A stretch of DNA of 64,000 nt from Escherichia coli. Its GTDB lineage: Bacteria > Pseudomonadota > Gammaproteobacteria > Enterobacterales > Enterobacteriaceae. Shown here piece after piece: positions 37,609 to 39,896 of this stretch. The number at the start of each line of letters is the position of its first letter. Within the stretch, counting starts at the first letter, position 1. The position numbers and the translations under genes are program-made. Under the pieces are notes generated by a model. That model ran no database searches, was not told the origin of the DNA, and saw only the letters and a program-made list of their open reading frames with translations. The stretch lies in NCBI RefSeq assembly GCF_050320075.1, contig NZ_CP190018.1; one strand, 5' to 3'.

Positions 37609-37737
37609 ATGAATACTAACGTTTTTCGACTGCTCCTGCTGGGAAGCCTGTTCAGCCTTAGCGCCTGTGTGCAGCAAAGCGAAGTGCGACAGATGAAACA
37701 CAGCGTCAGCACGCTGAACCAGGAGATGACGCAACTC
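37609..37737 (+). pseudogene. yajI: yajI lipoprotein gene, 5' fragment (interrupted by IS insertion)
   Basis: MNTNVFRLLLLGSLFSLSACVQQSEVRQMKHSVSTLNQEMTQL then the frame runs into IS-derived sequence and stops at 37797. Confidence 0.8.
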
Positions 37738-37747
37738 ATTGACATCC

Positions 37748-37769
37748 TCCACGCCCTGAAGGACGTGGA
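37748..37769 (-). repeat. Subterminal hairpin of IS605-family element (tnpB-proximal end)
   Basis: tccacg-ccctgaagga-cgtgga: 6-bp stem, 10-nt loop, about 10 nt inside the junction. Confidence 0.7.
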
Positions 37770-37781
37770 TCCCTGCTACGT

Positions 37782-38990
37782 TCAGGCTGTCGCCTGAATC
37801 ATTTCGGTGGGTTCCTGCTTCAACGGGCGGCCTGACTGCACCATCCCTCCACAGGCAAGAACGGCGTGCCCCGCCGCTAAAATGTTACGAGCGCCATTTA
37901 CATCGGCGTTCGCTGTATATCCACATACCTGGCATCTGAATTTACTTTGTGACAGGCGATTTTCTTTCGCTGTATGACCACAGCACGTGCAACGCTGGCT
38001 TGTGTACGCTGGCGAAACAGCAAGCACCTGACCGCCACGCCAGAGCTGCTTGTACTCAAGCTGGCGGCGCATTTCATACCAGCCCTGATCCAGTATCGAA
38101 CGGTTTAAACCTGATTTTGCCCGGACATTGCGCCCCGGCTGGCTGACCGTACCCGCTGCTGACTTTGACATGTTGCTGACCTTCAAATCCTCAATGACTA
38201 TCATTGCGTGGTTTTTGCTGACGGTCGTTGTGACTTTGTGAAGGTAGTCCCTGCGGATATTTGCGATACGGGAATGCAGTCGCTGTATTTTGCGTTTCTG
38301 CTTCTGCCAGTTGTTGCTGAATTTGACCTTGCGGCTTAACTGTCGCTGAAGTCTCGCCAGCGTCTTCTGGTTTTTCTGAAAACTGTTTACAGGCTCAAAG
38401 ACTGTGCCATCTGACAGCGTGGCGAGTTTAGCCACGCCAGCATCCAGCCCGACCATTGATGCTGAAGGGTGAACCGGAGTTGATACTTCACTTTCTGTCT
38501 GAATACTGATGTACCACTTACCGCAGGACTGGCTGACCGTGACATTTTTCACAACACCCGTGACCTGACGGCTATTCCGGTAGCGCATCCAGCCCAGTTT
38601 CGGCAGAAAAATACGGCTGTTTTCCTGATCGAGCTTAACGCCCTGCGGGTAGCGGAATGCATCATTCTGTCCCCGCTTTTTGAATCGGGGAAAAGCAGCC
38701 CGCTTCTGGAAGAAGTTTTTGTAAGCCCGCTCAAGGTCTTTCAGTGACTGTTGCAATGGCTGTGACGGGGCATCTTTAAGCCATTGCGTTTCAGTGGCAT
38801 TTTTCCACTCAACCAGCCAGGAAGCCATTTTCCCGTAAGGGATGTATTTATTACCGGCCTCATGATTCTCATTCTGAAGCGCCAGAGCACGATTGAAAAC
38901 GAAACGACATGCGCCTGCGAAGCGCCTCATTTCACACTCCTGTTGACCACCTGGTCTTAACTGGAATTTAAATGCCTGTAATCGTTTCAC
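37782..38990 (-). CDS. tnpB: TnpB (IS605 OrfB), RNA-guided RuvC-like endonuclease, apparently intact
   Basis: 402-aa ORF (GTG start); RuvC-I GLDAGV, RuvC-II VIEDL, zinc finger CTCCGH...CQVCG, Ruv[13 protein letters not shown]. Confidence 0.88.
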
Positions 38991-38997
38991 AGGTCAA

Positions 38998-39491
38998 ATG
39001 ATACTTTGGTCTATGAAAAAAGAAACCGATATCCGGCGTGGAAGGCATTGTGTTTTCCTGATGCATGTTCACCTGGTCTTTGTCACCAGATACCGACGCC
39101 AGATTTTTGACCATGACGCGACAGAAAAACTACGCACTTACTTTTCAAATGTATGTGCTGATTTTGAAGCTGAACTGGTTGAAATGGATGGCGAACCAGA
39201 TCACGTCCATTTGTTAATTAACTAACCTCCCAAACTGGCGATATCCAGTCTGGTAAACAGCCTCAAAGGCGTATCGGGTAGGTTACTGCGACGAGATCGA
39301 CCAGATATTGCAGTCAGGTATTACTACAAAGGCGTTTTGTGGAGTCCTGGCTATTTTGCCAGTAGCTGCGGAGGTGCGCCAATATCCGTCATCCGCCAAT
39401 ACATTGAACAACAGCAAACACCTGGTCAGGTGGAAAACCGCGCCTTATATCCCCGCCCTGAAGGACGGGGTTTTACGGCGCACCGGATAAA
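38998..39491 (+). pseudogene. tnpA: IS200/IS605 tnpA (Y1 HUH transposase) with in-frame nonsense codon
   Basis: N-terminal 75 codons end at TAA (39223-39225) directly after the HUH motif HVHLLIN; same frame continues with ...SLVNSLKGV...YYKGVLWSPGYFASSCGGAPISVIRQYIEQQ typical of the TnpA C-terminus. Confidence 0.8.
39451..39470 (-). repeat. Subterminal hairpin of IS605-family element (tnpA-proximal end)
   Basis: ccccg-ccctgaagga-cgggg: 5-bp stem with the same 10-nt loop as the other end, about 21 nt inside the junction. Confidence 0.7.
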
Positions 39492-39896
39492 GAAACAGTC
39501 AAAATCACTCAGCAAAACAGGCTGAATGCAAAATCCAGCAGTGGGGTTTACCTTCTGCCTGGAGCGAAAACACCAGCAAGACTGGAAAGCCAGATCGGTA
39601 CTTTACGTATGTCGCTGGTGAATATTACGCCTGATACAGATGGCACCACCCTGACGCTACGTATTCAGGGCGAGTCGAATGATCCCTTGCCCGCATTCAG
39701 CGGAACTGTTGAATATGGGCAAATTCAGGGAACAATAGACAACTTTCAGGAAATCAATGTGCAGAATCAATTGATTAACGCCCCTGCCAGCGTCCTCGCC
39801 CCCAGCGATGTTGATATTCCGTTACAGTTAAAGGGTATTTCTGTGGATCAGTTAGGCTTTGTACGTATCCACGACATTCAACCTGTTATGCAGTAA
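39492..39896 (+). pseudogene. yajI: yajI lipoprotein gene, 3' fragment
   Basis: ETVKITQQNRLNAKSSSGVYLLPGAKTPARLESQIGTLRMSLVNITPDTDGTTLTLRIQGE...HDIQPVMQ; separated from its 5' part by the IS. Confidence 0.8.

Follow-up and report, generated by a model that had tools for sequence, protein, structure and literature searches.

The yajI lipoprotein gene of Escherichia coli is interrupted at codon 44 by a copy of the insertion sequence (IS) IS609, a member of the IS200/IS605 family, in the stretch of chromosome analysed here, a window of 64,000 nucleotides from contig NZ_CP190018.1 of RefSeq assembly GCF_050320075.1. Very probably, yajI was simply inactivated when one IS609 copy inserted into it long ago, and several E. 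coli lineages now inherit the broken gene as a fixed pseudogene. The insertion is ordinary, being already annotated and published. In RefSeq, the NCBI Prokaryotic Genome Annotation Pipeline (PGAP) treats both halves of yajI as pseudogene pieces around tnpB and tnpA, with 37609-37737 as a partial DUF3251 pseudogene and the 3' piece as a partial SadB/YajI family lipoprotein pseudogene. The IS609 coordinates published for strain 28Eco12, 3978710..3980457 with flanks CTCA/ATAA (PMC6963479), map exactly to window positions 37739-39486, and the 2.7-kb region of that strain is 100% identical to the window; together with the RefSeq annotation, this means that the insertion was already known. The yajI::IS609 of 28Eco12, a strain of sequence type (ST) 38 (Abril et al. 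2019, PMC6963479), thus has the same gene, element, length and flanks, and nothing material differs. That paper lists the insertion as lying 'within the yajI gene'; the TTAT allele, the tnpA nonsense codon and the predicted omega-RNA guide described below are not discussed there.

IS609 interrupts yajI without loss of yajI sequence

The gene and its interruption comprise the following features.
37609..37738, plus strand: yajI 5' fragment, 130 nt (codons 1-43 and the first base of codon 44)
37739..39486, minus strand: IS609 (IS200/IS605 family), 1,748 bp; the top strand of the element is the minus strand of the window
39487..39896, plus strand: yajI 3' fragment, 410 nt (the second and third bases of codon 44, codons 45-179 and the stop)
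37609..37797, plus strand: chimeric 62-residue open reading frame (ORF), 43 YajI residues followed by 19 from the right end (RE) of IS609, from the ORF list and its translation

On the plus strand, yajI runs from an ATG at 37609 to a stop codon ending at 39896, which is the counterpart of the K-12 yajI stop. It opens with MNTNVFRLLLLGSLFSLSAC... and encodes a lipoprotein signal peptide, the lipobox LSAC and Cys20. The 5' fragment holds the signal peptide, the lipobox and the start of a coiled coil, and the 3' fragment the remaining coiled coil and a beta-sandwich domain. Positions 37609-37738 match positions 1-130 of intact yajI in strains Ecol_316 and O17_K12a without a difference, and 39487-39896 match positions 131-540 likewise. 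Joined, the fragments give 540 nt and 179 codons, with no differences from the intact coding sequence (CDS) of either strain (product WP_001314529.1). Removal of IS609 therefore restores intact yajI base for base, with no deletion and no target duplication, and an 81-nt empty site joined from the window flanks has uninterrupted matches of 100% identity elsewhere in E. coli. The reconstructed 179-residue protein differs from K-12 YajI at two residues (Q45K and A94T) and matches Pfam DUF3251 over residues 20-176 (E=4.6e-89) and the NCBIfam equivalog PRK11530 (E=1.7e-95, 317.6 bits against a cut-off of 158).

The bounds of the element were set by walking inward from both flanks against K-12 yajI, in which the site reads ...CAACTCA ATCAAG AAACAG..., as compared with ...CAACTCA-(IS)-ATAAAG AAACAG... 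in the window. With K-12 as the reference the junction looks ragged (CTCAATCAAG against CTCA-(...)-ATAAAG), an appearance ruled out as a property of the insertion by the intact alleles, which read AATAAA; the single C/A difference from K-12 is an allele, not damage. This bears on whether the insertion was imprecise and removed a few yajI nucleotides at the junction, as a first-pass annotation of the same sequence had proposed after counting 42 codons to the left of the IS and about 134 to the right, or some 176 of about 179 residues. That count, and the one-base difference from K-12 (AAT CAA versus AAT AAA) that roughens the boundary, are what speaks for such a loss. Against it stand the 540 nt in frame and free of differences from both intact coding sequences, IS ends shared with the copies at five other loci, and the behaviour of the IS200/IS605 family, whose elements make no target duplication or deletion; a deletion at the junction is extremely improbable. 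The two fragments are where the earlier count placed them, and the length of 179 residues is right, but the left fragment has 43 codons and the first base of codon 44, the right one the other two bases of that codon followed by 135 codons and the stop, and all 179 of 179 residues are accounted for; nucleotides had seemed to be missing because the IS ends had been misplaced. Alignment to intact yajI, which had been suggested as the check, places the insertion after the first base of codon 44.

Other parts of that annotation stand. The split of a yajI lipoprotein gene by an IS is borne out by the family match, the identical intact allele, the nrdR-tsx context, RefSeq and the 2019 paper, and the span 37609-39896 with its signal peptide and lipobox SAC on the left holds (LSAC, with Cys20). 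The fragments do lie in different frames, because the 1,748 bp of the IS leave a remainder of two when divided by three. A 62-residue fused product was also rightly noted, as the ORF 37609-37797 exists, although it is made up of 43 and 19 residues rather than 42 and 20. The window belongs to the nrdR-yajI-tsx region of the E. coli chromosome, and the place of yajI between nrdR and tsx, which is conserved (yajI is not in an operon with tsx; PMC3953254), holds here as well.

Because a 1,748-bp break at codon 44 leaves no single uninterrupted ORF, yajI is a pseudogene in the window. That yajI might instead consist of two genes by nature in this lineage, or that an assembly artefact produced the split, has next to no probability: no support for either was found, the same allele forms one 540-nt ORF in other strains, the 3' piece begins without a start codon, ribosome-binding context or signal peptide, and the junction is common to 340 independently finished genomes.

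Loss of YajI

The break falls in the coiled coil. From its native promoter the gene would give at most a putative 62-residue lipoprotein stub with the signal peptide, Cys20 and 23 coiled-coil residues. The 3' piece does not open with a start and carries no export signal; the first ATG in its frame is Met85 at 39609. Since the stub would lack the C-terminal domain and the 3' piece lacks a start and an export signal, we conclude from the sequence that YajI function is lost.

The reconstructed protein is a full-length member of the family of Salmonella SadB and YajI (DUF3251), with a lipobox, a coiled coil at the N terminus and a beta-sandwich at the C terminus; PDB entry 2JWY is the C-domain of YajI. 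Whereas sadB is linked to an autotransporter, yajI is not, and is without known function. Several successful lineages carry the break, which suggests that YajI is dispensable in successful clinical lineages.

IS609 ends and the yajI allele that supplies the target

Over its 1,748 bp the window element is 98.3-98.7% identical to copies that PGAP names 'IS200/IS605-like element IS609'. It lies in yajI with its left end (LE) on the 39486 side and RE on the 37739 side. The ends and target were assigned as follows.
39487..39490, minus strand: target and predicted transposon-associated motif (TAM) TTAT (ATAA on the plus strand of the window), immediately 5' of LE
39451..39470, minus strand: LE subterminal hairpin, CCCCGTCC-TTCA-GGGCGGGG, 16 nt inside the LE end, from the sequence and a DNA fold
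37749..37768, minus strand: RE subterminal hairpin, CCACGTCC-TTCA-GGGCGTGG, from the sequence and a DNA fold

There are no terminal inverted repeats; the subterminal hairpins at LE and RE have 8-bp stems and a TTCA loop, and one stem pair differs between the ends on both sides (C-G versus A-T). The element ends 10 nt beyond the RE hairpin with ...GTCAA (37739-37743, minus strand). Comparison with seven further IS609 copies at five loci (yedK, ytfB/TetR, ydcO, yeaQ/DUF1869 and yfaV/yfaY) showed identical termini in all copies, the tnpB-sense strand ending in ...GGATGTCAA. YTTAT stands immediately 5' of LE at six distinct loci, yajI included, where the site on the top strand of the element reads 5'-CTTTAT-(IS609)-TGAGTTGCG-3'.

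This target is supplied by the Lys45 allele of yajI (AAT AAA) and not by the Gln45 allele of K-12 (AAT CAA), which reads TTGAT at the site and so has no TTAT at this position. The Gln45/Lys45 polymorphism (CAA/AAA, 39487-39491) thus decides whether yajI offers an IS609 target here. The plus strand of the window has a GC skew of -0.035, which places the top strand of the element on the G-rich strand, that is, on the lagging-strand template; this is the orientation expected from replication-coupled single-strand transposition.

The element resembles IS608 of Helicobacter pylori and ISDra2 of Deinococcus radiodurans in its Y1 HUH TnpA and TnpB, its subterminal hairpins and its insertion, without duplication, on the 3' side of a short specific sequence. 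In the IS608 paradigm the target is TTAC and the RE terminus TCAA. IS609 likewise ends in TCAA at RE, whereas its target is TTAT rather than TTAC (IS608) or TTGAT (ISDra2), and it has tnpA and tnpB in the divergent arrangement of IS605, not the co-directional one of the IS608 and ISDra2 models. The ydcO-side IS609 of K-12 (insQ/tnpB and tnpA; 98.3% identity over 1,748 bp in the K-12-derived strains H77 and H80) has the same ends but is intergenic and at a different locus, whereas the window copy lies inside a gene. The ydcO-locus copy of strain 1919D3 (L006) is preceded by TTTAT, and its tnpA frame has no internal stop.

An intact tnpB beside a dead tnpA

The yajI copy carries two genes.
37782..38990, minus strand: tnpB (insQ-type RNA-guided endonuclease), intact, 402 residues, WP_024189688.1
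39013..39486, plus strand: tnpA (Y1 HUH transposase) pseudogene, divergent from tnpB; PGAP start 38998, note 'internal stop'

The tnpB product matches Pfam HTH_OrfB_IS605, OrfB_IS605 and Cas12f1-like_TNB and NCBIfam guided_TnpB (E=3e-116), and its residues 3-376 align with the ISDra2 TnpB structures 8EXA, 8BF8 and 8H1J (E ~8e-56). It keeps the GLDAGV and VIEDL motifs and a zinc finger, CTCCG...CQVCG (CxxC...CxxC); the RuvC D-E-D catalytic residues were assigned by motif, in regions that align with the solved TnpB nucleases. In strain '405' the tnpB of the yajI copy (L014, locus 2822-3979) has a premature stop at codon 386 and is annotated with 385 residues; not all yajI::IS609 lineages therefore have an intact tnpB.

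In tnpA, the codon for Tyr71 has changed from TAT to TAA at 39223-39225, as seen in the translation and in comparison with ten other copies, most of which have TAT. After repair of the stop, the product matches Pfam Y1_Tnp (E=1.5e-41) and NCBIfam transpos_IS200 (E=7.4e-43), with HVH (HUH) and RQY motifs visible. Judged by its sequence, the tnpA of the yajI copy is dead by nonsense at codon 71.

In every copy examined the tnpA frame lacks its own terminal stop within IS609 and runs through the LE hairpin into the flank, which is why PGAP labels every copy 'missing C-terminus'. At yajI the frame ends at a flank TGA at 39523-39525, within yajI. An in-frame fusion of the tnpA read-through with the yajI 3' fragment was considered and ruled out, as the read-through is in another frame and stops at 39525.

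No new IS609 insertions arose in K-12 mutation-accumulation lines, and the IS609 TnpB was purified in one nuclease screen; for IS609 transposition itself, no biochemistry was found.

Candidate omega-RNA and proposed mechanism

A guide RNA for TnpB was predicted at the following position.
37723..37910, minus strand: predicted omega-RNA (sense-overlapping RNA, sotRNA), with a scaffold at about 37739-37910 over the tnpB 3' end and RE; the 5' limit is approximate

Its predicted 16-nt guide, 5'-UGAGUUGCGUCAUCUC (37723-37738), is antisense to yajI codons 39-44. We take the sotRNAs to be the class now called omega-RNAs, following what is reported in Karvelis 2021 and Altae-Tran 2021. Sense-overlapping RNAs with a UUCA tetraloop have been described at tnpB 3' ends, with examples seen in E. 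coli K-12 RNA-seq (Gomes-Filho et al. 2015, PMC4615843). An Rfam search at the gathering threshold gave no match inside IS609. At permissive settings, three models matched on the minus strand: HgcC at 37726-37849 (E=0.009, 23.8 bits against a gathering score of 50), which runs 13 nt into yajI; RAGATH-18 at 37812-37855 (28.1 bits against 44.9); and sot0042 at 37748-37909 (17 bits against 88). We infer from the sequence a candidate omega-RNA spanning the tnpB 3' end and RE.

The mechanism that we propose for the locus draws on what is reportedly known from Karvelis 2021, Meers 2023 and work on IS608 and ISDra2. By analogy, TnpA would have catalysed the entry of IS609 into the lagging-strand template by single-strand 'peel and paste', with the Lys45 yajI allele presumably offering the TTAT target that the K-12 allele does not have, and the yajI copy would by now have lost independent mobility. 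TnpB would be loaded with an omega-RNA whose transcription covers the tnpB 3' end and RE and continues into yajI; the complex would recognise TTAT followed by TGAGTTGCGTCATCTC, and thus only the restored empty Lys45 site, and predicted cutting of that site by TnpB would favour retention of IS609.

Nothing was found that speaks against the insertion itself, and the points that weigh against this account all lie in its inferred steps. The three Rfam matches, although on the expected strand and in the expected place, are all below their gathering scores. The fold of the putative omega-RNA is not clearly better than that of shuffled sequences (z = -1.84), so that structure alone does not support an omega-RNA. 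To these are added TnpB cleavage and the TTAT TAM, both predicted by analogy, and the stub product of the 5' fragment, which is at most putative.

Distribution and age of the insertion

A 54-nt probe that spans the left junction with 27 nt on either side matched 340 of 5,426 complete E. coli genomes, once in each, and a search with the whole 2.7-kb region also gave 340 genomes. In RefSeq these genomes already have the two yajI pieces, tnpB and the tnpA pseudogene annotated. A copy of IS609 at any locus is present in 5,015 genomes. The carriers include the ST38 strains 28Eco12 and 266917_2 (assigned to ST38 in PMC6963479), a strain named '405', and IAI39 and its relatives. Between the yajI copy of IAI39/HB42 and that of the window, 27 of 1,748 IS positions differ (1.5%), as do 10 of 600 and 12 of 410 positions in the flanks. 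The IS and its flanks are thus about equally diverged, which fits, but does not prove, one old insertion inherited with its surroundings, as read from the sequences. In each of the six carriers examined, reconstructed yajI has kept its 179-codon frame open, with four to five amino acid changes in the IAI39 group.

Two observations weaken the case for a single ancient insertion. First, the empty Lys45 allele occurs in 28 genomes, a number obtained as 281 exact matches to a 56-nt query less 253 carrier half-matches and covering only genomes identical over those 56 nt; the query was off-centre (22 + 34 nt), and carriers matched through its right half. Second, IS609 copies are mosaic by gene conversion, which blurs dating.

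The same data can be read as repeated insertion at one site, or as horizontal spread of the occupied allele, in place of a single vertical event. Spread would proceed by recombination, possibly aided by TnpB cutting the empty Lys45 allele ('homing'). Consistent with such histories, the junction is found in ST38, '405' and IAI39-like genomes while other Lys45 strains have no IS; the left flank of Ecol_316 shares four of five differences with the carrier '405'; IS609 occupies the site in about 92% of the genomes whose allele bears TTAT (340 versus 28); and the yajI IS copies, which differ from one another at 14-27 nt, have variants in common with copies elsewhere. By contrast, the 1.5% divergence of the IS between the window and IAI39 tracks the 1.7-2.9% of the flanks, as expected for co-inheritance, and the 14 differing nt of the ST38 variant fall in one contiguous tract that equals a ytfB-locus copy, which points to conversion of a resident copy rather than to a new insertion. 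Exact re-insertion is further made improbable by the very large number of TTAT sites. Re-insertion or spread is therefore unlikely, though it has a real share of the probability, and one old insertion passed on with its surroundings is the reading that we prefer.

Exchange between IS609 copies and the fate of their genes

The yajI IS609 of ST38 occurs in two forms with 14 differences (the window against 266917_2, L003, locus 701-2448). The 266917_2 copy is chimeric: IS positions 1-301 equal the window copy, and 361-1546 equal the ytfB/TetR-locus copy of ST38. All 14 differences lie in one contiguous tract (361-1546) identical to the ytfB-locus copy of 28Eco12 (L018, locus 301-2048), which indicates gene conversion between IS609 copies. 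In 266917_2 this conversion swapped the tnpA nonsense codon 71 for one at codon 91.

Polymorphism was compared in the window copy and 11 other IS609 copies (L003-L010, L013, L014 and L018). The tnpB gene is full length in 11 of the 12, and the ratio of replacement to synonymous polymorphism (pN/pS) is ~0.31 (29 synonymous-only against 35 replacement polymorphic codons). Stops interrupt tnpA in 7 of the 11 copies scored, the IAI39 copy (L013) being left out, and pN/pS is ~1.4 (3 against 16). PGAP annotates the IAI39-type tnpA as frameshifted with an internal stop. It seems from these sequences that tnpB is selectively maintained while tnpA decays, a lead only, as the sample is small, non-independent and affected by conversion. 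The wider proposal that the IS609 copies of E. coli became fixed in ancient times and are essentially immobile, with selection keeping tnpB and the omega-RNA while tnpA decays, is a speculative one that we consider doubtful.

Other features of the window

Over 49.7 kb the window differs at five positions from strain CFSAN061763 and has the same gene order, cof...nrdR-yajI-tsx...mak. Counting IS609, three elements of the IS200/IS605 family lie in the 64 kb. The other two are tnpA-only IS200 copies on the minus strand; the first sits at the left edge (tnpA to 236, with STnc490 at 246-369) and the second between proY and brnQ (tnpA 53143-53601, with STnc490 at 53611-53734); both STnc490 Rfam matches are full-length, at 144-146 bits. 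The CFSAN061763 annotation places a gene for a 523-residue pentapeptide-repeat protein between yajO and pgpA (31608-33179, plus strand) and one for a 485-residue hypothetical protein between acpH and malZ (48017-49474, minus strand). We take both genes to lie outside the K-12 gene order, and they are possibly accessory insertions.

Implications

The finding matters little in itself. yajI::IS609 is a lineage marker, present in 6% of complete E. coli genomes and in the ST38 clone, which has been described as pandemic (PMC6963479), and it is a naturally occurring knockout of a conserved lipoprotein that has no known function. It also serves as an example in three respects: the TTAT target of an IS200/IS605 element is gained or lost through one single-nucleotide polymorphism (Gln45 to Lys, CAA to AAA), an insertion has outlasted its dead transposase, and the guide RNA of a TnpB would be templated by a host gene.

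The asymmetry between tnpB and tnpA is the only aspect that could feed a live question, namely the role of TnpB in elements that no longer move. If tnpB and its omega-RNA are indeed kept by selection in immobile copies, TnpB-omega-RNA at yajI would matter beyond retention coupled to TnpA: it might police empty Lys45 yajI alleles arriving by recombination, through homing or exclusion, or it might alternatively have a host-level role like that of exapted TnpB-derived regulators.

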